Of a stretch of 64,000 nucleotides of DNA, positions 2,234 to 54,874 are shown in pieces. The position numbers and the translations under genes are program-made. Position 1 is the stretch's first letter, and each line of letters starts with the position of its first letter. Below the pieces are notes generated by a model, which saw only the letters and a program-made list of their open reading frames with translations, ran no database searches and was not told the DNA's origin. The DNA comes from Escherichia coli (lineage in GTDB: Bacteria > Pseudomonadota > Gammaproteobacteria > Enterobacterales > Enterobacteriaceae): the NCBI RefSeq assembly GCF_041248615.1, contig NZ_CP158426.1; one strand, 5' to 3'.

Positions 2234-5941
<3,708 letters not shown>

Positions 5942-28327: not shown

Positions 28328-30754
28328 TTATATTTTTTCGATCTCGACCAGATTAGTGTGCTGCGGGTTTCCCTTCGCCAGTGGTGAAGGGCGCAGAGTG
28401 GTTAGCGTATTCACACAGCCGCCATGGTCGATTTTATCGCCAGACATATTGGCCTCGTGCCAGGCTCCCTGGCCCATAGCGCTAACCCCAGGGAGAATGC
28501 GTGGTGTCACTTTGGCTGGTAGCCGAACTTCGCCACGATGGTTATACACCCGCACCATATCGCCGTTGGCAATCCCACGTTTCTGTGCATCTATAGGGTT
28601 GATCCACACCTCCTGACGGCAGGCAGCCTTCAGGACATCAATGTTGCCGTAGGTCGAGTGAGTACGGGATTTGTAATGGAAACCAAACAGTTGCAGTGGG
28701 AAGGTTCTACGTTCAGGGGAGTCCCAGCCTTCAAAGGTTGAGGCATAAACTGGCAGTGGGCTTATCACTTCATCTTTTTCCAGTTCCCAGGTACGGGCAA
28801 TTTCCGCCAGCTTGCTGGAATAAATTTCAATCTTACCGGAAGGCGTTTTAAGTGGATTTGCCTCGGGGTCGTCACGAAATGCTTTGTAGGCGACAAAATG
28901 ACCATTGGGATCTTTACGCTTATAGATACCCATTTTTTTCAGTTCGTCGTAAGACGGTAACGCCGGATCTTTGGCAAGCATTTTGGCGTACAGATGTTGT
29001 AACCATTGTTCCTGCGTGCGACCTTCTGTGAACTTTTGATAGACGTCAGGTCCAAGACGTTTCGCGACCTCACTCAGGATCCAGTAAATCGGTTTGCGTT
29101 CGAATTTTTCGCTGGTGACTGGCTGAAGGAAAATGAGATATCCCATGTTACCGGCGTAGTCGTTAGGAATAATATCTTCCTGCTCAACGGTCATCAGGTC
29201 TGGCAGCAGAATGTCGGCATATTTTGCCGATGAGGTCATAAAGTTTTCGATGACCACAATCATTTCGCATTTCGATTCGTTCTGCAGAATTTCATGCGTT
29301 TTGTTGATGTCAGAATGCTGATTAACCAGGGTATTTCCCGCGTAGTTCCAGATGAACTTAATGGGCACATCCAGTTTATCTTTGCCCCGGACGCCGTCGC
29401 GGATTGCCGTCATTTGCGGGCCATGATCGATAGCATCCGTCCAGCTGAAGCAGGAGATTGACGTTTTGACCGGATTATCCAGCACCGGTAGGCGTTCTAT
29501 GGTAATGGTATAGGTCGATTCACGCGCGCCACTATTCCCGCCGCTGATGCCGACATTGCCCGTCAAAATAGGCAACATAGCAATAGCGCGTGCGGTCAGC
29601 TCACCGTTTGCCTGGGGTTGCGGCCCCCAGCCCTGGCAGATATAAGCGGGTTTTGCTGTGCCAATTTCACGCGCCAGCTTGATGATACGGTCCACCGGGA
29701 TACCGGTAATTTGCGAAGCCCACTGCGGCGTTTTCGCTGTTTTATCATCACCTTCACCAAGAATATAGGCTTTATAGTGACCATTTTTTGGTGCATCTGC
29801 GGGTAAGGTTTTTTCGTCATAGCCGACGCAGTATTTATCGAGAAAAGGTTGATCAACGAGATTTTCGTTAATCAATACCCAGGCAATACCCGCAACCAGC
29901 GCGGCATCGGTGCCCGGGCGAATAGGTAGCCATTCGTCTTCACGACCAGCAGCTGTATCGGTATATCGCGGATCGATAACAATCATTTTTGCGTTCGATT
30001 TCTCGCGCGCTTTTTCAAGAAGATAAGTGATGCCACCGCCGCTCATGCGGGTTTCTGCCGGGTTGTTACCAAACATCACGACCAGCTTGCTGTTTTCAAT
30101 ATCCGTGGTGCTGTTGCCATCATTACTGCCGTAGGTGTAGGGCATGGCACAGGAAATTTGCGCGGTGCTGTAGGAGCCATACTGGTTGAGTGAACCGCCG
30201 TAGCAGTTCATCAGGCGTTTGACCGCCGAGGCGGATGGCGAAGAGCGGGTCATATTGCCGCCAACGATCCCTGAAGAGTACTGAATATATACAGCCTCAT
30301 TGCCATATTGTTCGACGGTTTTTTTCAGGCTACTGGCGATAGTATCCAGGGCTTCATCCCAGCTAATCCGTTCGAATTTGCCTTCGCCGCGTTTGCCCAC
30401 GCGTTTCATTGGGTAATTCAAGCGATCGGGATGATTAATACGCCGACGGATGGAGCGACCGCGCAAACAGGCACGTACTTGATGATTGCCATACTCGTCG
30501 TTGCCGGTGTTGTCAGTTTCCACCCAGGTCACTTCATTATCTTTAACATGCAGACGAAGTGCACAGCGGCTACCACAGTTGACGGAACAGGCACCCCAGA
30601 CCACTTTCTCGCTGGCCTGCTGTACCGCTGCCGCTGCACTGCGCAGGGTGAACGGTAAAGAAAAACCGCCTGCAGCCAGCGCCAGAGAACCTATCGCGGT
30701 AGATTTAACGAGTGTTCTGCGGCTGATGCCCACCATTTGTTCATTTTTGGACAT
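28328..30754 (-). CDS. ynfE: DmsA-like molybdopterin oxidoreductase catalytic subunit (Tat signal), 808 aa; selenate reductase paralogue
   Basis: Track ORF 808 aa, paralogous to ynfF (about 75% nt identity at 3' ends by eye); twin-arginine motif SRRTLVKSTAIGS. Confidence 0.9.
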   Translation of the reverse strand: MSKNEQMVGISRRTLVKSTAIGSLALAAGGFSLPFTLRSAAAAVQQASEKVVWGACSVNCGSRCALRLHVKDNEVTWVETDNTGNDEYGNHQVRACLRGRSIRRRINHPDRLNYPMKRVGKRGEGKFERISWDEALDTIASSLKKTVEQYGNEAVYIQYSSGIVGGNMTRSSPSASAVKRLMNCYGGSLNQYGSYSTAQISCAMPYTYGSNDGNSTTDIENSKLVVMFGNNPAETRMSGGGITYLLEKAREKSNAKMIVIDPRYTDTAAGREDEWLPIRPGTDAALVAGIAWVLINENLVDQPFLDKYCVGYDEKTLPADAPKNGHYKAYILGEGDDKTAKTPQWASQITGIPVDRIIKLAREIGTAKPAYICQGWGPQPQANGELTARAIAMLPILTGNVGISGGNSGARESTYTITIERLPVLDNPVKTSISCFSWTDAIDHGPQMTAIRDGVRGKDKLDVPIKFIWNYAGNTLVNQHSDINKTHEILQNESKCEMIVVIENFMTSSAKYADILLPDLMTVEQEDIIPNDYAGNMGYLIFLQPVTSEKFERKPIYWILSEVAKRLGPDVYQKFTEGRTQEQWLQHLYAKMLAKDPALPSYDELKKMGIYKRKDPNGHFVAYKAFRDDPEANPLKTPSGKIEIYSSKLAEIARTWELEKDEVISPLPVYASTFEGWDSPERRTFPLQLFGFHYKSRTHSTYGNIDVLKAACRQEVWINPIDAQKRGIANGDMVRVYNHRGEVRLPAKVTPRILPGVSAMGQGAWHEANMSGDKIDHGGCVNTLTTLRPSPLAKGNPQHTNLVEIEKI

Positions 30755-30853
30755 AACTCACTCCCTGTTCTTTATCGTTATATAAAAGTTTATATATTGA
30801 ATATTTAGCGCGCTAACAATAGAGGGAGTCTACCTATTTTGGGTTAAGAATTA

Positions 30854-33552: not shown

Positions 33553-33681
33553 ACCATTCACGGCGCAAATATACGCCTTTTTTTGTGATCACTCCGGCTT
33601 TTTTTGATCTTTATACTTGTATGGTAGTAGCTCAGTTGCGTAGATTTCATGCATCACGACAAGCGATGCAAGGAATCGAAC

Positions 33682-34896
33682 ATGAAGATCGTAAAGGCTG
33701 AAGTTTTTGTTACCTGTCCGGGGCGTAATTTCGTCACATTAAAAATCACTACTGAGGACGGTATTACGGGCCTTGGGGATGCCACCCTCAATGGACGTGA
33801 GCTTTCCGTGGCCTCTTATTTGCAGGATCACCTTTGTCCGCAGCTTATTGGTCGCGATGCGCACCGTATCGAAGATATCTGGCAGTTTTTCTATAAAGGT
33901 GCTTACTGGCGTCGCGGTCCGGTTACGATGTCGGCCATTTCAGCGGTTGATATGGCGCTGTGGGATATTAAAGCCAAAGCTGCCAACATGCCGCTTTACC
34001 AGTTACTCGGCGGCGCGTCTCGTGAAGGGGTGATGGTTTATTGCCATACCACCGGTCACAGTATTGATGAAGCTCTGGATGATTATGCCCGTCATCAGGA
34101 GCTGGGATTCAAAGCCATCCGCGTGCAGTGCGGAATCCCTGGTATGAAAACCACCTACGGCATGTCGAAAGGCAAAGGTCTGGCTTATGAACCCGCAACC
34201 AAAGGACAGTGGCCGGAAGAGCAGCTGTGGTCGACGGAGAAATACCTCGATTTCATGCCGAAATTGTTTGACGCGGTACGTAACAAGTTTGGTTTTAATG
34301 AACATTTGCTGCATGACATGCACCATCGCTTAACGCCTATTGAAGCGGCGCGCTTTGGTAAAAGCATTGAAGATTATCGCATGTTCTGGATGGAAGACCC
34401 GACGCCTGCGGAAAACCAGGAATGCTTCCGTCTCATTCGCCAACATACCGTCACACCCATCGCGGTGGGTGAAGTCTTCAACAGCATCTGGGACTGCAAG
34501 CAACTGATTGAAGAGCAACTTATCGATTATATCCGCACTACGCTGACCCACGCGGGTGGCATTACCGGTATGCGCCGGATTGCCGATTTTGCTTCGCTGT
34601 ATCAGGTACGTACTGGCTCACACGGTCCTTCCGATTTGTCACCAGTCTGCATGGCTGCGGCGCTGCACTTTGATCTGTGGGTCCCCAATTTCGGTGTCCA
34701 GGAATACATGGGTTATTCCGAACAAATGCTCGAAGTCTTCCCGCACAACTGGACTTTCGATAACGGCTATATGCATCCGGGAGACAAACCGGGTCTTGGC
34801 ATCGAATTCGATGAAAAGCTGGCGGCGAAATATCCCTATGAACCTGCTTATCTGCCAGTCGCACGTCTGGAAGATGGCACGCTGTGGAACTGGTAA
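33682..34896 (+). CDS. rspA: Starvation-sensing protein RspA (enolase superfamily, mannonate dehydratase-like), 404 aa
   Basis: Track ORF 415 aa; start placed at [17 protein letters not shown] (ATG 33682) with AGGAA RBS. Confidence 0.92.
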
Positions 34897-34907
34897 GGAG
34901 TAAGATA

Positions 34908-35927
34908 ATGAAAAGCATTTTAATTGAAAAACCGAATCAACTGGCAATTATCGAACGCGAAATACCTACCCCGTCAGCGGGTGAAGTACGAGTAAAAGTG
35001 AAACTTGCCGGAATTTGTGGTTCAGATAGCCATATTTATCGTGGGCATAATCCTTTTGCGAAATATCCGCGCGTCATTGGACATGAATTTTTTGGCGTCA
35101 TTGATGCAGTGGGTGAAGGCGTGGAAAGCGCCAGAGTCGGTGAACGCGTTGCTGTCGATCCGGTGGTCAGCTGTGGGCATTGCTATCCGTGCTCTATAGG
35201 TAAGCCGAACGTTTGTACAACACTGGCTGTATTAGGTGTGCACGCTGACGGTGGTTTCAGTGAATATGCCGTGGTTCCGGCAAAAAATGCGTGGAAAATT
35301 CCTGAAGCAGTGGCCGATCAATATGCGGTGATGATCGAACCTTTTACCATTGCGGCGAACGTAACCGGTCATGGTCAACCGACTGAAAATGATACCGTTC
35401 TGGTTTACGGTGCCGGTCCAATCGGCCTGACGATCGTTCAGGTATTAAAAGGCGTCTATAACGTTAAAAATGTGATTGTTGCCGATCGCATTGATGAACG
35501 ACTGGAAAAAGCGAAAGAGAGCGGGGCTGACTGGGCGATTAATAACAGCCAGACACCGCTTGGCGAGATTTTCGCTGAAAAAGGCATAAAGCCGACATTA
35601 ATTATCGATGCGGCTTGTCATCCTTCTATCCTGAAAGAGGCCGTAACTCTGGCTTCTCCAGCGGCACGTATTGTATTGATGGGCTTCTCCAGTGAACCGT
35701 CTGAAGTGATTCAGCAAGGAATTACCGGAAAAGAACTCTCTATTTTCTCTTCACGCTTAAATGCAAATAAATTCCCGGTCGTTATCGACTGGTTAAGTAA
35801 AGGGTTAATTAAACCAGAAAAATTAATTACCCATACGTTTGATTTCCAGTATGTTGCTGATGCCATTAGTTTATTTGAACAGGATCAAAAACATTGCTGC
35901 AAAGTCTTACTCACTTTTTCTGAATAA
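34908..35927 (+). CDS. rspB: Starvation-sensing protein RspB (Zn-dependent alcohol dehydrogenase family), 339 aa
   Basis: Track ORF 347 aa; start placed at MKSILIEKPNQ (ATG 34908) with TAAGGAG RBS; GHEFFG and GCG motifs. Confidence 0.92.
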   Translation: MKSILIEKPNQLAIIEREIPTPSAGEVRVKVKLAGICGSDSHIYRGHNPFAKYPRVIGHEFFGVIDAVGEGVESARVGERVAVDPVVSCGHCYPCSIGKPNVCTTLAVLGVHADGGFSEYAVVPAKNAWKIPEAVADQYAVMIEPFTIAANVTGHGQPTENDTVLVYGAGPIGLTIVQVLKGVYNVKNVIVADRIDERLEKAKESGADWAINNSQTPLGEIFAEKGIKPTLIIDAACHPSILKEAVTLASPAARIVLMGFSSEPSEVIQQGITGKELSIFSSRLNANKFPVVIDWLSKGLIKPEKLITHTFDFQYVADAISLFEQDQKHCCKVLLTFSE

Positions 35928-35984
35928 TACCAATAACGGCGAGTAAGTAGTACGCATCTTACCTCTTTTTTAGAGATAACCATT

Positions 35985-37352
35985 ATGACAATAGAAAAAC
36001 ACGAAAGAAGCACTAAGGATTTGGTGAAAGCAGCAGTATCGGGATGGCTGGGCACAGCGCTTGAATTTATGGATTTCCAGTTATATTCGCTCGGCGCAGC
36101 GTTAGTGTTTCATGAAATATTTTTTCCTGAATCATCAACGGCAATGGCGTTAATTCTGGCAATGGGAACCTACGGTGCAGGTTATGTGGCGCGTATTGTC
36201 GGAGCATTTATTTTCGGCAAAATGGGCGACAGAATCGGGCGTAAAAAAGTACTCTTTATTACCATCACCATGATGGGGATCTGTACCACCTTAATTGGTG
36301 TGTTACCGACCTATGCACAGATTGGTGTTTTTGCACCCATCTTGCTGGTGACGCTGCGTATTATTCAGGGATTGGGTGCAGGTGCGGAAATTTCCGGTGC
36401 CGGTACGATGCTGGCGGAATATGCGCCAAAAGGTAAGCGCGGAATTATCTCCTCATTTGTGGCTATGGGGACTAACTGCGGAACCTTGAGCGCAACGGCA
36501 ATCTGGGCCTTTATGTTCTTCATTCTCAGTAAAGAGGAACTGCTTGCGTGGGGATGGCGTATACCGTTCCTGGCGAGCGTTGTCGTGATGGTCTTTGCTA
36601 TCTGGTTGCGTATGAATCTGAAAGAAAGCCCGGTCTTTGAGAAGGTTAACGACAGCAACCAACCGACAGCAAAACCTGCACCTGCTGGTAGCATGTTCCA
36701 GAGCAAATCCTTCTGGCTGGCAACAGGGCTGCGTTTTGGTCAGGCTGGTAACTCCGGTTTAATTCAGACTTTCCTTGCAGGCTATTTAGTGCAGACGTTA
36801 TTGTTTAACAAAGCAATTCCAACAGATGCATTGATGATTAGTTCGATTCTCGGCTTTATGACCATTCCGTTCCTTGGTTGGTTATCCGATAAAATTGGTC
36901 GCCGGATCCCGTATATTATTATGAATACCTCCGCGATTGTGCTGGCATGGCCAATGCTTTCTATCATCGTAGATAAAAGCTATGCCTCGAGCACCATTAT
37001 GGTTGCACTGATTGTGATTCATAACTGTGCGGTGCTGGGATTATTTGCTCTGGAAAACATTACCATGGCAGAAATGTTCGGCTGTAAAAACCGCTTTACC
37101 CGGATGGCTATTTCTAAAGAAATTGGTGGTCTTATCGCTTCCGGTTTTGGTCCTATCCTGGCGGGTATTTTCTGCACCATGACGGAATCCTGGTATCCGA
37201 TCGCCATTATGATCATGGCATATTCAGTGATTGGTTTAATCTCTGCGCTGAAAATGCCAGAAGTGAAAGACCGTGATTTAAGTGCACTGGAAGATGCCGC
37301 GGAAGATCAACCGCGTGTTGTAACAGCTGCGCAACCTTCAAGAAGTCTGTAA
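35985..37352 (+). CDS. ydfJ: MFS (metabolite:H+ symporter-like) transporter, 455 aa, intact
   Basis: Track ORF 455 aa; lies directly after rspB, whereas in K-12 (from memory) this gene is disrupted by the Qin prophage. Confidence 0.82.
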   Translation: MTIEKHERSTKDLVKAAVSGWLGTALEFMDFQLYSLGAALVFHEIFFPESSTAMALILAMGTYGAGYVARIVGAFIFGKMGDRIGRKKVLFITITMMGICTTLIGVLPTYAQIGVFAPILLVTLRIIQGLGAGAEISGAGTMLAEYAPKGKRGIISSFVAMGTNCGTLSATAIWAFMFFILSKEELLAWGWRIPFLASVVVMVFAIWLRMNLKESPVFEKVNDSNQPTAKPAPAGSMFQSKSFWLATGLRFGQAGNSGLIQTFLAGYLVQTLLFNKAIPTDALMISSILGFMTIPFLGWLSDKIGRRIPYIIMNTSAIVLAWPMLSIIVDKSYASSTIMVALIVIHNCAVLGLFALENITMAEMFGCKNRFTRMAISKEIGGLIASGFGPILAGIFCTMTESWYPIAIMIMAYSVIGLISALKMPEVKDRDLSALEDAAEDQPRVVTAAQPSRSL

Positions 37353-37357
37353 ATCCT

Positions 37358-37392
37358 CCATCCCTTCTCTTACCGGAGAGGGGATTTTTTAT
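37358..37392 (+). terminator. Rho-independent terminator of ydfJ
   Basis: Stem ATCCCTTCTC/GAGAGGGGAT (one mismatch) followed by T7 run. Confidence 0.6.
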
Positions 37393-37441: not shown

Positions 37442-38902
37442 ATGGGAAATAATTTGTTATCAGCAAAAGCGACACTCCCTGTTTATGATCGTAATAACCT
37501 GGCCCCAAGAATTGTTCATTTAGGCTTTGGTGCATTTCACCGTGCGCATCAGGGCGTGTATGCCGATATTCTTGCTACAAAACATTTCAGTGATTGGGGA
37601 TATTATGAGGTCAATTTAATCGGCGGCGAACAGCAAATTGCCGATTTACAACAGCAAGATAATCTTTATACCGTTGCGGAAATGTCGGCCGATGCGTGGA
37701 CGGCTCGCGTCGTTGGCGTCGTTAAAAAAGCCTTGCACGTACAGATTGATGGCTTAGAAACCGTGTTGGCTGCGATGTGTGAACCGCAAATCGCGATTGT
37801 CTCTCTGACAATCACCGAAAAAGGGTATTTCCACTCTCCGGCGACCGGACAGTTAATGCTCGATCACCCGATGGTCGTTGCCGACGTACAAAATCCCCAC
37901 CAGCCGAAAACTGCAACAGGGGTGATTGTCGAGGCGCTGGCTCGCCGTAAAGCGGCAGGACTTCCCGCATTTACCGTCATGTCATGTGACAACATGCCAG
38001 AAAACGGTCATGTTATGCGTGACGTTGTCACTTCCTACGCGCAAGCTGTTGATGTAAAACTGGCACAATGGATCGAAGAAAACGTGACTTTCCCATCAAC
38101 AATGGTGGACCGTATTGTGCCCGCAGTGACGGAGGATACGCTGGCGAAAATCGAACAACTTACCGGTGTGCGCGATCCTGCTGGCGTTGCCTGTGAACCT
38201 TTCCGCCAGTGGGTAATAGAAGATAACTTTGTTGCCGGACGTCCGGAATGGGAAAAAGCGGGAGCCGAACTGGTTAGTGATGTGCTGCCTTATGAAGAGA
38301 TGAAGTTGCGCATGCTCAACGGCAGTCATTCATTCCTGGCGTATCTGGGGTATCTTGCCGGATATCAGCACATTAATGACTGCATGGAAGATGAACATTA
38401 TCGTCATGCAGCGTATGCCTTGATGTTGCAGGAACAAGCGCCGACGTTGAAAGTGCAGGGTGTTGATTTGCAAGATTACGCTAACCGATTAATTGAACGC
38501 TATAGCAACCCGGCGCTACGTCATCGAACCTGGCAGATTGCGATGGATGGCAGCCAGAAATTGCCACAGCGGATGTTGGATTCTGTTCGCTGGCATCTGG
38601 CGCATGACAGCAAGTTCGATCTGCTGGCGCTGGGCGTCGCAGGTTGGATGCGTTATGTGGGTGGTGTTGATGAACAGGGAAATCCGATAGAAATCAGTGA
38701 CCCACTGTTACCTGTTATTCAGAAGGCTGTACAAAGTAGTGCCGAAGGGAAAGCGCGCGTCCAGTCATTGCTGGCGATTAAGGCGATCTTTGGTGATGAT
38801 TTGCCAGACAATAGCTTGTTTACTGCAAAAGTGACGGAAGCGTACTTGTCTTTATTAGCGCATGGTGCGAAAGCGACCGTGGCGAAATATTCCGTGAAGT
38901 AA
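37442..38902 (+). CDS. ydfI: Mannitol dehydrogenase-family oxidoreductase, 486 aa
   Basis: Track ORF 486 aa with long-chain mannitol/fructuronate dehydrogenase N-terminal Rossmann motif. Confidence 0.88.
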
Positions 38903-39316: not shown

Positions 39317-40003
39317 TTACTCTTCGCTAAACCAGTCGCTGTTTTCCTGGCGGATCTGGCGCACGGATTCGCTGATTTCCTGCAAATGTTGCGTCATTGC
39401 ACGTTCTACCGCATCGCCATCACGTTTTTGCAGGGCAGAGAAAATATCAAGATGCTGGCGTAACAGCATTTCTGGTGGAGAAACGTGGTCGAAACTCATA
39501 TAGCGCACGCGATCAACGGTCGCTTTCAGGTTCTCAATGGTATCCCACGCCAGTTGACAGTCGGCAATCTGGGTCAGGAGTTGATGGAAGTTGTCATCAA
39601 GTTCAAAAAAATCATCCAGTTGCTTGCGCTCAATGGCAATGCGTTGCTGGTGAAGATTTTGTTCCAGTTGGTAGCACTGGCTTTCGGTAATCATGCTCGC
39701 CGCCCGACGCGCCACCGCGCACTCAATGGCCTGACGGATAAAACTGCCGTTGCGCACCTGGGCCATGGAAATTTTGTTGACGTAGCTGCCACGCTGCGGA
39801 CGAATTTGAATCAGGCCGTTTTCCGCCAGTTTAATAAAGGCTTCACGAACCGGCTGGCGTGACACATTGAAACGAACAGAAACTTCTTTTTCCGACAACG
39901 GTGTGCCTGGTGCAATCAGGCAATGGACAATGTCGCGACGAAGAATACGATAAATCTGCTGATTGACAGGCTGTGTGGGATTAAGTTGCGTTTCGACGGT
40001 CAT
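39317..40003 (-). CDS. ydfH: GntR/FadR-family transcriptional regulator (RspR), 228 aa
   Basis: Track ORF 228 aa with N-terminal GntR HTH and FCD domain. Confidence 0.9.
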
Positions 40004-43061: not shown

Positions 43062-43384
43062 TGGTTAGAGCAGTAATTGCAGCAGCTGGGCGAGGGCAAA
43101 CCTCACCGCTAATGCTAATACCGTTTCGCAGTCGCCAGCAAAATTACTTTTTTTGTATACCCTTCCGTTATAATAATTTTCAAATTTATAAATCTGATTG
43201 TTCTGAAATATGTTTAAGACTCTTTAATCTTCTTCTTACTTTAGTGAGTAAAATTCTCTGAATATTTGACAGCTAGTTGCCTGATTTTAAATGCCTTATA
43301 ACAATTGGCAGTATTCTTATTTGTCAATTATAAAAATAGCAACCAGACTTAATAAGTCAAACCAAACGCAATTAAGGAGTCAGT

Positions 43385-47649: not shown

Positions 47650-47693
47650 ACGCACAGAATGTGATGTCAGCACTCTGTGCGTCTGCTTTTATC
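47650..47693 (+). terminator. Rho-independent terminator of eamA; island-side regulator stop codon lies inside its T-tract
   Basis: Stem CGCACAGA/TCTGTGCG with 15-nt loop followed by TCTGCTTTTATC. Confidence 0.6.
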
Positions 47694-48387
47694 GCGGGAA
47701 AAAGTACTTTACCTGGAACTCGAAAATATTGCTGTAAAGTAACGAATAATCCAGCGGAATAGAGTTACTGTCCACAGCCTGGGTCTGAATTTTAAGTATG
47801 GGATCCCGTGGGCTGATCCGTAAAATACTGGCGATTTCTGGGGTAGGAAAAGTAGGGGAGAAAGTTTCAAAGGTGCCAATGATTTTGATCCCGCATTCGT
47901 TCTCAATATACGAAAATTTGGATTTTTGCATATGTGCTACGGTTAAATCAGGAAAACGTGCCACTGACATCCACGTTTCTTCTAATTGTGCTGCATTATC
48001 CTCAATGAATCGCAGTCTCTTTATGTAATAAACCTGCTCACCAGTCACTAAATTCAGCTCAGTCGCAATAGGGGGAGAAGCATCCTGCACTTCAAATTTC
48101 ATAATCTGACTTCCTGCCTCCTTGCCGCTTTTATGCGCAATTTCACTGAAGCTGTTCATGTGATCAATGTGTGCAACAAAATTCTTTTTTTGAATATATG
48201 TTCCTGAACCATGCTTTCTATGAATAATTCCTTCGCCTTCCAGCAAGGATAATGCCTTACGCAGGGTATTACGCGAAACATTATAACGAACAGCGAGTTC
48301 AGCTTCTGACGGCAACAAATCACCAACATGCCATGAATAGCCATTGATCTCGGATTTAAGTAAGCGGGCAATCTTTTGAAAAATCAC
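47689..48387 (-). CDS. GntR/HutC-family transcriptional regulator with UTRA effector domain, 232 aa (bgcR-like), GTG start
   Basis: Track ORF 232 aa; N-terminal GntR HTH (LPSEAELAVRYNVSRNTLRKALSLLEGEGII) ; divergent from the PTS operon. Confidence 0.85.
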   Translation of the reverse strand: MIFQKIARLLKSEINGYSWHVGDLLPSEAELAVRYNVSRNTLRKALSLLEGEGIIHRKHGSGTYIQKKNFVAHIDHMNSFSEIAHKSGKEAGSQIMKFEVQDASPPIATELNLVTGEQVYYIKRLRFIEDNAAQLEETWMSVARFPDLTVAHMQKSKFSYIENECGIKIIGTFETFSPTFPTPEIASILRISPRDPILKIQTQAVDSNSIPLDYSLLYSNIFEFQVKYFFPR

Positions 48388-48502
48388 TTTTGCACCTTTT
48401 AAGAGCCATTGAAAACAAGGAGTTGAGTCCTGATTGGTTTATCGTATGGTCGAGTCGTTTAATTATCACCCTGATGTTGAACAACTTTAGTGCTGTATTA
48501 CT

Positions 48503-48518
48503 GTGATCAATGTACCAG
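48503..48518. promoter_or_regulatory. Candidate CRP site in the PTS operon promoter
   Basis: TGTGA-TCAATG-TACCA (8/10 to TGTGA-N6-TCACA); a TATGAT -10-like hexamer at 48539-48544 would place it near -41.5. Confidence 0.3.
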
Positions 48519-48560
48519 GACGTATAGCTACTGCGGGATATGATATTTACACAATGTAAT

Positions 48561-48574
48561 CTGTTATATACCAG
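48561..48574. promoter_or_regulatory. Candidate HutC-type operator (imperfect palindrome) immediately upstream of EIIB RBS
   Basis: CTGTTATATACCAG resembles GT-N-TA-N-AC style HutC-family operators; overlaps predicted 5' UTR. Confidence 0.25.
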
Positions 48575-48585
48575 TAAGGGAAAAT

Positions 48586-48897
48586 ATGAAAAAGATATTG
48601 TTAGTTTGCGCTGCGGGCATGTCAACCAGTATGCTGGTTAAACGTATGATTGATCATGCTAACGCTATTTCACTTGAAGTTAATATTTCCGCATTGGCGA
48701 TTGCAGAGGCTAAAGGGAAAATTAAAAATAACGAAGTTGACGTTGTTTTACTTGGCCCGCAAGTTCGCTTTCAGAAACCAGAGATTGAAGCTGTTGCACA
48801 GGGGAAAATGCCTGTAGCTGTTATCGAGATGAAAGACTATGGCACCATGAACGGACAGGCAGTTCTTGAATTTGCGATGAAACTACTGCAAGAGTAA
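48586..48897 (+). CDS. PTS lactose/cellobiose-family EIIB component, 103 aa (bgcE-like)
   Basis: Track ORF 103 aa MKKILLVCAAGMSTSMLV... with phosphorylatable Cys in LLVCAAGMSTS motif. Confidence 0.9.
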   Translation: MKKILLVCAAGMSTSMLVKRMIDHANAISLEVNISALAIAEAKGKIKNNEVDVVLLGPQVRFQKPEIEAVAQGKMPVAVIEMKDYGTMNGQAVLEFAMKLLQE

Positions 48898-49010
48898 GAA
48901 TCTAATATTATTAAACTATTACCTGAACTAACTTTTCACACATCATAAAATGGATATGGCATACATGCTTTATTGGGATGTATAAATATCCAGAACAACA
49001 GGTATAAAAA

Positions 49011-50333
49011 ATGGGATTAATGACCTCATTCGAACGTGGAATGGAACGTTTTCTTGTTCCAGTTGCTATCAAGTTAAACTCACAAAAACATGTTGCAGCG
49101 GTGAGAGATGGATTCGTTTTTACGTTTCCAATTATCATGGCAAGCTCATTAATTATATTAATTAACTTTGCCATATTATCGCCCGACGGCTTTATTGCCG
49201 GGCTGCTGCATCTGAACCGCGTTTTCCCCAACCTTGAAAAAGCACAAGCTATTTTTACTCCGGTAATGAATGGCTCTGTAAATATCATGTCAATTATGAT
49301 TGCTTTCCTGGTCGCCAGAAATATGGCGATTAGCTATGAGCAAGATGATCTTTTATGCGGATTAACGGCAATAGGAGCATTTTTTATTGTTTATACGCCA
49401 TATCAGATGATAGATGGGCAAGCATTCCTGACGACCAAATATCTCGGCGCACAGGGGTTGTTTGTTGCTGTTATCGTTGCATTAATCACCAGTGAAATAT
49501 TTTGTCGCTTAGCTCGAAACCCAAAAATCACCATAACGATGCCGGCAGCTGTACCTCCTGCGGTATCGCGTTCATTTAAAGTTTTATTGCCAATATTTTT
49601 TGTCATGGTGTTCTTTTCCGCACTTAATTATTGCCTGACACTGATATCCCCGGCAGGATTAAACGATCTCATTTACACATTAATCCAGACGCCGCTCAAA
49701 CATATGGGAACGAATATCTTTGCGGTAATTATCCTGGGGGCTGTGGGTAATTTCCTGTGGGTGCTGGGGATCCACGGACCTAATACCACCTCGGCAATTC
49801 GAGAAACTGTTTTTTCTGAGGCTAATCTGGAGAATCTCTCCTGGGCCGCTCAACACGGCACTACCTGGGGCGCGCCATATCCGATTACCTGGACTTCTAT
49901 TAATGATGCATTCGCCAACTGCGGCGGTTCAGGTATGACGTTGGGGTTATTGTTGGCTATTTTTATCGCGTCTAAGCGTGCGGAATACCGTGATCTGGCA
50001 AAAATGTCGTTTATCCCCGGTATTTTCAATATCAATGAACCGATAATGTTCGGCCTTCCTATTGTACTTAACCCCATCATGATGGTGCCGTTTATTCTGG
50101 TTCCCATTGTTAACTGTGCCATTGGTTACTTCTTTGTTTCGATGGAAATTATTCCACCGGTTGCTTATGCCGTGCCCTGGACTACGCCCGGACCTTTAAT
50201 TGCTTTCCTCGGAACCGGGGGAAACTGGTTGGCGTTACTGGTGGGTTTTTTATGTTTAGGTGTGGCGACAATGATCTATTTACCTTTTGTTATTGCCGCC
50301 AACAAGGTCAATAACATGACAACTAACGGATAA
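49011..50333 (+). CDS. PTS lactose/cellobiose-family EIIC permease, 440 aa (bgcF-like)
   Basis: Track ORF 440 aa polytopic membrane protein with EIIC-type layout. Confidence 0.88.
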   Translation: MGLMTSFERGMERFLVPVAIKLNSQKHVAAVRDGFVFTFPIIMASSLIILINFAILSPDGFIAGLLHLNRVFPNLEKAQAIFTPVMNGSVNIMSIMIAFLVARNMAISYEQDDLLCGLTAIGAFFIVYTPYQMIDGQAFLTTKYLGAQGLFVAVIVALITSEIFCRLARNPKITITMPAAVPPAVSRSFKVLLPIFFVMVFFSALNYCLTLISPAGLNDLIYTLIQTPLKHMGTNIFAVIILGAVGNFLWVLGIHGPNTTSAIRETVFSEANLENLSWAAQHGTTWGAPYPITWTSINDAFANCGGSGMTLGLLLAIFIASKRAEYRDLAKMSFIPGIFNINEPIMFGLPIVLNPIMMVPFILVPIVNCAIGYFFVSMEIIPPVAYAVPWTTPGPLIAFLGTGGNWLALLVGFLCLGVATMIYLPFVIAANKVNNMTTNG

Positions 50334-50354
50334 TCCCATTTACACAGGAAGGAG

Positions 50355-50672
50355 ATGTTGATGTTTGCAGATGAAGAACTTGTTATGGAGTTACTGATCA
50401 ACGCGGGACAGGCACGTTCTGATGCGATGGAAGCCATACGTTGTGCCGGGCAAAAAGACTGGCAGGGCGCAACTCAGCTAATGGCCAGTTCGGAATTAGC
50501 CTGTCTTCAGGCACATAAGATTCAGACCGCGTTAATTAGTCAGGATGAAGGTTGTGGCAAAATAGAAGTTAATTTAATTCTGGTTCATGCACAGGATCAT
50601 TTGATGAATGCAATATTATGCCAGGATTTAGCCAGGGAAATTATTTCATTAAGAAAAGAGCTCCATGCCTGA
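50355..50672 (+). CDS. PTS lactose/cellobiose-family EIIA component, 105 aa (bgcI-like)
   Basis: Track ORF 105 aa, all-helical EIIA-lac type with conserved His in VHAQDHLM; AGGAAGGAG RBS. Confidence 0.9.
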   Translation: MLMFADEELVMELLINAGQARSDAMEAIRCAGQKDWQGATQLMASSELACLQAHKIQTALISQDEGCGKIEVNLILVHAQDHLMNAILCQDLAREIISLRKELHA

Positions 50673-50676
50673 TTTT

Positions 50677-50702
50677 TTCCTCCAGTGCGATAGCTGGAGG
50701 AA
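50677..50702 (+). other. Intra-operon stem-loop between EIIA and porin genes
   Basis: Perfect 9-bp stem TTCCTCCAG/CTGGAGGAA, 8-nt loop, preceded by T6 and followed by AUUAUUACACUCUU, ending 26 nt before porin ATG. Confidence 0.45.
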
Positions 50703-50724
50703 ATTATTACACTCTTAAGGATAA

Positions 50725-54845
<4,121 letters not shown>

Positions 54846-54874
54846 TGAGACTTCAGGAAGATATTACGGAGATA

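Follow-up and report, generated by a model that had tools for sequence, protein, structure and literature searches.

Introduction

Does the rspB–ydfJ junction of this Escherichia coli chromosome represent a vacant integration site of the Qin prophage, and may the intact ydfJ found next to it encode a working transporter? Integration of Qin is known to be site-specific and to hit the 5′ end of ydfJ, which deprives the gene of its promoter and truncates 28 N-terminal codons; of 638 strains, 48% have this prophage (PMC6379469). Qin is assigned to ydfJ in strains W, K-12, B, and Crooks (PMC3032704), and in strain SE11 a lambda-like prophage was described between ydfJ and rspB (PMC2608844). The neighboring repressor RspR controls rspAB negatively, the palindrome ATACnnGTAT being footprinted upstream of rspA, and in K-12 it is Qin that separates rspR from rspAB, which is not the case in some relatives (PMC8249747). 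An empty Qin site accompanied by intact ydfJ is therefore nothing new: it has already been described (PMC6379469, PMC8249747) and is common and ordinary. Here, we addressed where exactly the prophage enters in K-12, whether the empty site of the strain under study is ancestral or restored, and what the uninterrupted gene cluster is likely to do.

Results and Discussion

The rspB–ydfJ region and its surroundings

The window, i.e., the whole analyzed stretch of 64 kb, matches base for base positions 2627672-2691671 of NZ_LT599825.1 (E. coli NRZ14408), and the PGAP annotation of this record was used. According to it, manA, fumB, fumC, and tus are found at one end of the window, and sad, glsB, and yneG at the other. 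Since the gene of the terminus-site binding protein, tus, lies within the window (3634-4563), the locus belongs to the part of the chromosome around the replication terminus, which in K-12 harbors a cluster of several lambdoid prophage sites (Rac, Qin). Features of the cluster in question are collected in Table 1.

Table 1. Coordinates of the features of the rspA–rspR segment, numbered from the first nucleotide of the window.
Feature	Position	Strand	Evidence
RspR box ATACTTGTAT, rspA promoter region	33613..33622	+	Motif scan, PMC8249747
rspA, D-mannonate dehydratase (ManD) subgroup of the enolase superfamily	33682..34896	+	PGAP, NF043051
rspB, Zn-dependent sugar-acid dehydrogenase	34908..35927	+	PGAP, NF007489
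rspB–ydfJ spacer, 57 bp	35928..35984	+	Sequence, terminator scan
ydfJ, 455 aa, MHS-family MFS metabolite:H+ symporter (predicted)	35985..37352	+	ORF list, PGAP, TIGR00883, Pfam MFS_1
ydfJ codons 1-28, missing from the K-12 ydfJ ORF	35985..36068	+	K-12 alignment, protein comparison
attB core TTATGGATTTC, unoccupied	36067..36077	.	attB/attP/attL/attR alignment
ydfJ codon 335, TCG (Ser)	36987..36989	+	Allele and ortholog comparison
Intrinsic-terminator-like hairpin with T-run, directly after the ydfJ stop	37360..37385	+	Terminator scan, fold
ydfI, mannitol-dehydrogenase family, fructuronate-reductase-like	37442..38902	+	NF011611, PGAP
rspR (ydfH), GntR/FCD repressor of the rspA promoter	39317..40003	-	Pfam, PGAP, PMC8249747

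The ORF list and the sequence bear out the earlier note, made from the sequence alone, in that rspB terminates with the stop codon at 35925-35927 and is followed by a full-length ydfJ opened by ATG and running uninterrupted over 455 codons; PGAP attributes its product to WP_001590156.1, “MHS family MFS transporter YdfJ”. The same is true for the absence of phage genes, none of which is annotated across the 64 kb in the identical record. The sole mobile element that PGAP gives for the window is an IS3 transposase (53100-54328).

Position of the Qin insertion within ydfJ

In K-12 MG1655, the annotated order is rspB (b1580), ynfP (b4534, 36 codons), Qin, and ydfJ (b1543, 427 aa), with “cryptic prophage Qin” occupying 20,469 bp (1632277-1652745) from ydfK (b1544) to intQ (b1579). 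This agrees with the layout given in the earlier note, namely, about 20 kb of Qin (b1544-b1579) separating rspB from a truncated ydfJ, and the K-12 chromosome accordingly has no contiguous rspB–ydfJ junction. Alignment with the window defines both borders of the insertion: at the rspB side homology extends up to ...GAATTTATGGATTTC, at the ydfJ side it is found from TTATGGATTTCCAGTTA... onward, and the 11-mer TTATGGATTTC is the only sequence common to the two junctions. This 11-mer spans codons F28-M29-D30-F31 of ydfJ. Since the core shared by both K-12 junctions is a part of the gene, Qin resides inside ydfJ (codons 28-31) rather than between rspB and ydfJ, as had been supposed; what remains of that proposal is that the site is unoccupied here and represented by a single attB.

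Protein comparison leads to the same picture. YdfJ of K-12 begins at Met29, inside the core, and differs from the corresponding part of the window protein (residues 29-455) only in having P335 and R447; chance plays no role in an agreement that reflects homology. With the restart at Met29, 28 residues are lost, so that the expected absence of about 30 N-terminal codons from K-12 ydfJ takes an exact value, the one reported earlier (PMC6379469). The opposite part of the gene is retained in YnfP, composed of YdfJ residues 1-31 (MTIEKHERSTKDLVKAAVSGWLGTALEFMDF) and five phage-derived codons (KSHAC). Thus, ynfP (b4534; positions 30729-30839 of the K-12 locus L001) is a chimeric ORF (…EFMDF+KSHAC) made by prophage insertion and no independent gene; no counterpart ORF is present in the window. 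It is K-12, then, that shows the derived, disrupted state, and its 427-aa “YdfJ” and “YnfP” are two halves of one gene.

A vacant attB and the phages predicted to use it

Flanking the core in the window are the bacterial arms of K-12 attL (left) and K-12 attR (right), while the core itself is present at the site in one copy with neither int nor phage genes adjoining it (alignment, PGAP). The missing partner of the recombination could be taken from free or inducible phages, since the Qin integrase remnant together with the att arm is 98.9-99.9% identical to the respective region of mEp460_ev081, Tritos, HannyBb, and PhiR42_1 (98.9% for the mEp460_ev081 integrase compared to the intQ remnant), and 91-93% identity was registered between the Qin integrase region and several Stx2a-converting phages. 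In the four-way alignment, attP of mEp460_ev081, located next to int, reads as the phage arm of attR, the core, and the phage arm of attL, the window attB reads as the bacterial arm of attL, the core, and the bacterial arm of attR, and exactly the 11-mer TTATGGATTTC is common to attB, attP, attL, and attR. This reciprocal exchange of arms around the core indicates that a canonical attB for an integrase of the Qin/mEp460 type lies vacant in the window. This attB is expected to admit mEp460-like phages as well as some Stx2a-converting phages with related integrase.

Compared to the Qin (Kim) site in ydfJ of K-12, the window shows no difference in the bacterial flanks and the 11-bp core, but it is unoccupied and has ydfJ whole (455 aa) instead of being divided into ynfP (36 aa) and ydfJ (427 aa). 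Other elements behave in a similar way: e14 and phage 21 in icd and Rac in ttcA likewise rely on integration by tyrosine recombinase at a short intragenic core and show patchy occupancy, but insertion of e14 results in a duplicated icd 3′ end, and Rac affects TtcA only by varying its N-terminus (PMC6379469). Unlike them, phages of the Qin type do not restore the 5′ end of ydfJ, the downstream ORF restarting at an internal Met with its promoter lost.

In O157:H7 F8797, lambdoid tail-fibre and DUF1076 genes adjoin a ydfJ flagged by PGAP as “missing N-terminus”. At its ydfJ-proximal end (locus L005, 3471-5471), this ydfJ-site prophage has three tandem genes of DUF1076-domain proteins and a lom-like gene. 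Judging from such cargo, the same attB hosts cargo-rich lambdoid phages in pathogens.

Frequency and ancestry of the empty site

To place the strain among others, 5,426 complete E. coli genomes were surveyed with a 121-bp probe centered on the core. The junction is uninterrupted in 2,011 of them (37%), and in 62%, i.e., nearly all others, homology breaks at window position 36062. The K-12-type attL junction was recognized at coverage of at least 80% in 2,723 of the 5,426 genomes; this 50% matches the 48% known for Qin (PMC6379469). In further genomes, O157:H7 for example, the integrase found at this position is more diverged.

The survey, the K-12 alignment, and the MG1655 annotation together rule out two other explanations, for which no support was found: that the K-12 layout given in the earlier note is wrong, which is incompatible with the two parts of ydfJ being kept apart in MG1655 by annotated Qin of 20,469 bp, and that a prophage collapsed out of the assembly, which would have to apply to 2,011 independent complete genomes sharing the uninterrupted junction.

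Orthologs of YdfJ having 455-460 aa and 82-85% identity are encoded in Citrobacter, Enterobacter, Lelliottia, Leclercia, and Superficieibacter. For outgroup synteny, two genomes found by exact-protein look-up, those of C. portucalensis and E. kobei (YdfJ of 455-458 aa), were compared to the window, and all three follow the common order ynfD-ynfC-speG-ynfB-ynfA-rspA-rspB-ydfJ-ydfI-ydfZ-(usp)-rspR-ydfG-dcp. Since this order is uninterrupted in Citrobacter and Enterobacter, the empty state is ancestral.

Nevertheless, an ancestral arrangement might also be regained if the lineage once held a prophage of the Qin type at ydfJ and was “cured” by precise Int/Xis-mediated excision, an event that regenerates exactly the attB of the window. 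Live phages with near-identical integrase do exist (mEp460, Tritos, HannyBb, and PhiR42_1, at least 98.9%; some Stx2a-converting phages, 91-93%), and occupancy of the ydfJ site is patchy across E. coli, so that both gain and loss are plausible in general. For this particular lineage, past excision seems very unlikely, because the site is empty in every one of the closest relatives (99.0-99.5% identity over the 5.4-kb cluster), the same arrangement recurs in other genera, and neither a scar nor a duplicated core nor any phage remnant is seen at the window site. Retention of the ancestral empty state appears to be the simplest reading of these sequences. With a probability of roughly 90%, we consider the window to carry an ancestral unoccupied attB, with rspA, rspB, and ydfJ contiguous and YdfJ being a symporter that, as its context suggests, most likely imports a hexonate. 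That the strain retains the ancestral rspAB–ydfJ–ydfI cluster matters little by itself beyond bookkeeping.

Gene cluster, its regulation, and the likely substrate

Protein families assigned to the neighbors of ydfJ are coherent with sugar-acid metabolism. RspA scores 744 bits against the ManD equivalog NCBIfam NF043051 (cutoff 550), RspB scores 692 bits against the equivalog NF007489, with threonine, inosose, and L-idonate 5-dehydrogenases being the next-best named models, in keeping with a Zn-dependent polyol/sugar-acid dehydrogenase, and YdfI reaches 653 bits against NF011611 of the fructuronate reductase subfamily (cutoff 603). RspR combines the GntR and FCD domains of Pfam. Its motif ATACNNGTAT has one match only in the window, the RspR box ahead of rspA, and the block around this box shows no variation in Citrobacter and Enterobacter. 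Terminator scanning revealed no terminator-like structure in the 57-bp rspB–ydfJ spacer. The hairpin placed after ydfJ consists of an 11-pair stem followed by TTTTTT and has folding energy of -16.4 kcal/mol (z = -2.8, with 0 of 200 shuffled sequences being as stable). From this we infer that rspA, rspB, and ydfJ may constitute one transcription unit under RspR.

The orthologous cluster of E. coli CFT073 was reportedly assigned by Wichelecki et al. in 2014 (Biochemistry 53:5692) to a cryptic L-gulonate pathway, said to proceed from L-gulonate via D-fructuronate and D-mannonate to KDG. The set of genes attributed to CFT073 (RspA, RspB, and RspD/YdfI) is the same as that of the window, with a ManD-subgroup dehydratase, a Zn-dehydrogenase, a reductase of the mannitol-dehydrogenase family, a GntR repressor, and an MFS transporter located among them; a role of the transporter in that pathway is proposed from context. 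On the basis of this genomic context, the compound taken up by YdfJ is probably a sugar acid, either L-gulonate, the leading candidate, or one related to it.

A working scheme can be drawn as follows. Where phage is absent, rspA, rspB, and ydfJ would be read contiguously, ydfJ being preceded by no terminator and followed by the terminator-like hairpin, beyond which lie ydfI and rspR. YdfJ would bring in the hexonate, and the neighboring enzymes would convert it to 2-keto-3-deoxygluconate, RspB acting presumably as dehydrogenase, YdfI as a fructuronate-reductase-like enzyme, and RspA as mannonate dehydratase. Upon integration of the Qin type, as in K-12, ydfJ is separated both from its own first 28 codons and from the rspA promoter controlled by RspR. 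Work on the substrate of YdfJ and on the “cryptic” L-gulonate pathway is best placed in strains free of Qin, this one among them.

YdfJ as a transporter under purifying selection

YdfJ matches TIGR00883 (MHS) with 462.2 bits at the cutoff of 443.45, its residues 23-418 covering profile positions 1-400 of 400, and Pfam MFS_1 with 131 bits. MFS motif A (GxxxD[RK]xGR[RK], between TM2 and TM3) is represented by GKMGDRIGRK at residues 78-87 and is invariant in orthologs. By family membership, YdfJ is a predicted metabolite:H+ symporter of the MHS family (TC 2.A.1.6), to which ShiA, ProP, and KgtP belong as well. The ShiA and ProP models align with YdfJ over nearly full length, but their scores are far under the equivalog cutoffs (270 versus 538 and 225 versus 544, respectively), thus defining YdfJ as a distinct ortholog group. 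A sequence search among solved structures returned only distant MFS matches (phosphate transporters and SV2A, E ~1e-5), carrying no information on the substrate, and no transport or growth data for YdfJ were found in the accessible literature.

Among intact ydfJ alleles from different phylogroups, dN/dS is 0.02-0.05, implying that the gene is kept by strong purifying selection. The N-terminal portion contributes to this constraint. In 26 enterobacterial orthologs, residues 12-49 are almost wholly invariant, and 15 of the 17 positions within 12-28 are invariant, V18 being nearly so; what K-12 has lost is therefore a piece of the core under constraint. This missing segment also includes E27, the acidic residue of the MHS TM1 motif. 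An AlphaFold2 model built with 26 close orthologs is all-helical and of low confidence (pLDDT 42, pTM 0.37), and a single helix spanning residues 10-46 in it can be taken as a hint only. Kyte–Doolittle scanning found multiple hydrophobic segments, resolving neither TM1 nor 12 helices.

Substitution of the conserved proline in this strain

The intact ORF, the MHS score, and the low dN/dS all speak for the suggestion of the earlier note that ydfJ may encode a functional transporter; what qualifies it is a near-unique P335S substitution. Codon 335 of the window specifies Ser, and Pro occupies this position in K-12, O104:H4, and Z247, as well as in 25 of 25 aligned orthologs from other genera. The exact 61-mer containing the Ser335 codon occurs in just 2 of ~5,190 complete E. 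coli genomes (NRZ14408 and NZ_OW967178.1). One might suppose on these grounds that the ORF is intact yet the transporter is impaired or inactive through the private substitution, ydfJ being an incipient pseudogene of a cryptic pathway. We regard this as unlikely, given that ydfJ has no frameshift or stop codon, that residue 335 lies outside any recognized MFS motif, and that in the low-confidence model it starts a predicted helix after a short loop. Replacement of Pro by Ser at a helix N-cap is often tolerated. In view of this very rare replacement of a conserved proline, we consider YdfJ of this strain a likely, though not assured, functional transporter. A second private change of the protein, R447T, belongs to its variable C-terminal tail.

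A conserved block upstream of ydfJ

Within the rspB–ydfJ spacer, an 18-nt sequence GTAGTACGCATCTTACCT (35947-35964) is near-invariant in E. coli, Citrobacter, and Enterobacter, being kept although wobble positions near it have diverged. In E. kobei, it comes after a terminator-like hairpin. Neither a second copy within the window nor a match to any Rfam family was detected, and its assignment as an RspR box was rejected for the lack of a motif match. Judging by its conservation, the block may be a regulatory element for ydfJ.

Combining this block with the occupancy data, a broader proposal may be formulated, which we find unlikely. Occupancy of the ydfJ attB by phages of the Qin type would act as a species-wide on/off polymorphism for uptake and catabolism of sugar acids, so that only ~37% of strains, those with the empty site including the present one, would be able to take up L-gulonate or a related hexonate via YdfJ with RspR in control, lysogens (K-12, B, W, and O157:H7) would be unable to do so, and the block at 35947-35964 would be an undescribed regulatory element of the transporter.

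Other differences from K-12

Two more departures from K-12 were observed in the window. Between eamA and marB, which adjoin each other in K-12, the window contains ~7.2 kb (47689-54848) absent from K-12 and encoding a GntR regulator, PTS components IIB/IIC/IIA of the lactose/cellobiose type, a carbohydrate porin, and a family-1 glycoside hydrolase, the gene of the latter being split by the IS3-family element at 53100-54328. Between dcp and ydeI, only an 81-bp remnant of ydeJ is left (43065-43145, annotated as “2-oxo-tetronate isomerase”, partial), whereas the gene is complete (519 bp) in K-12 and O157:H7.
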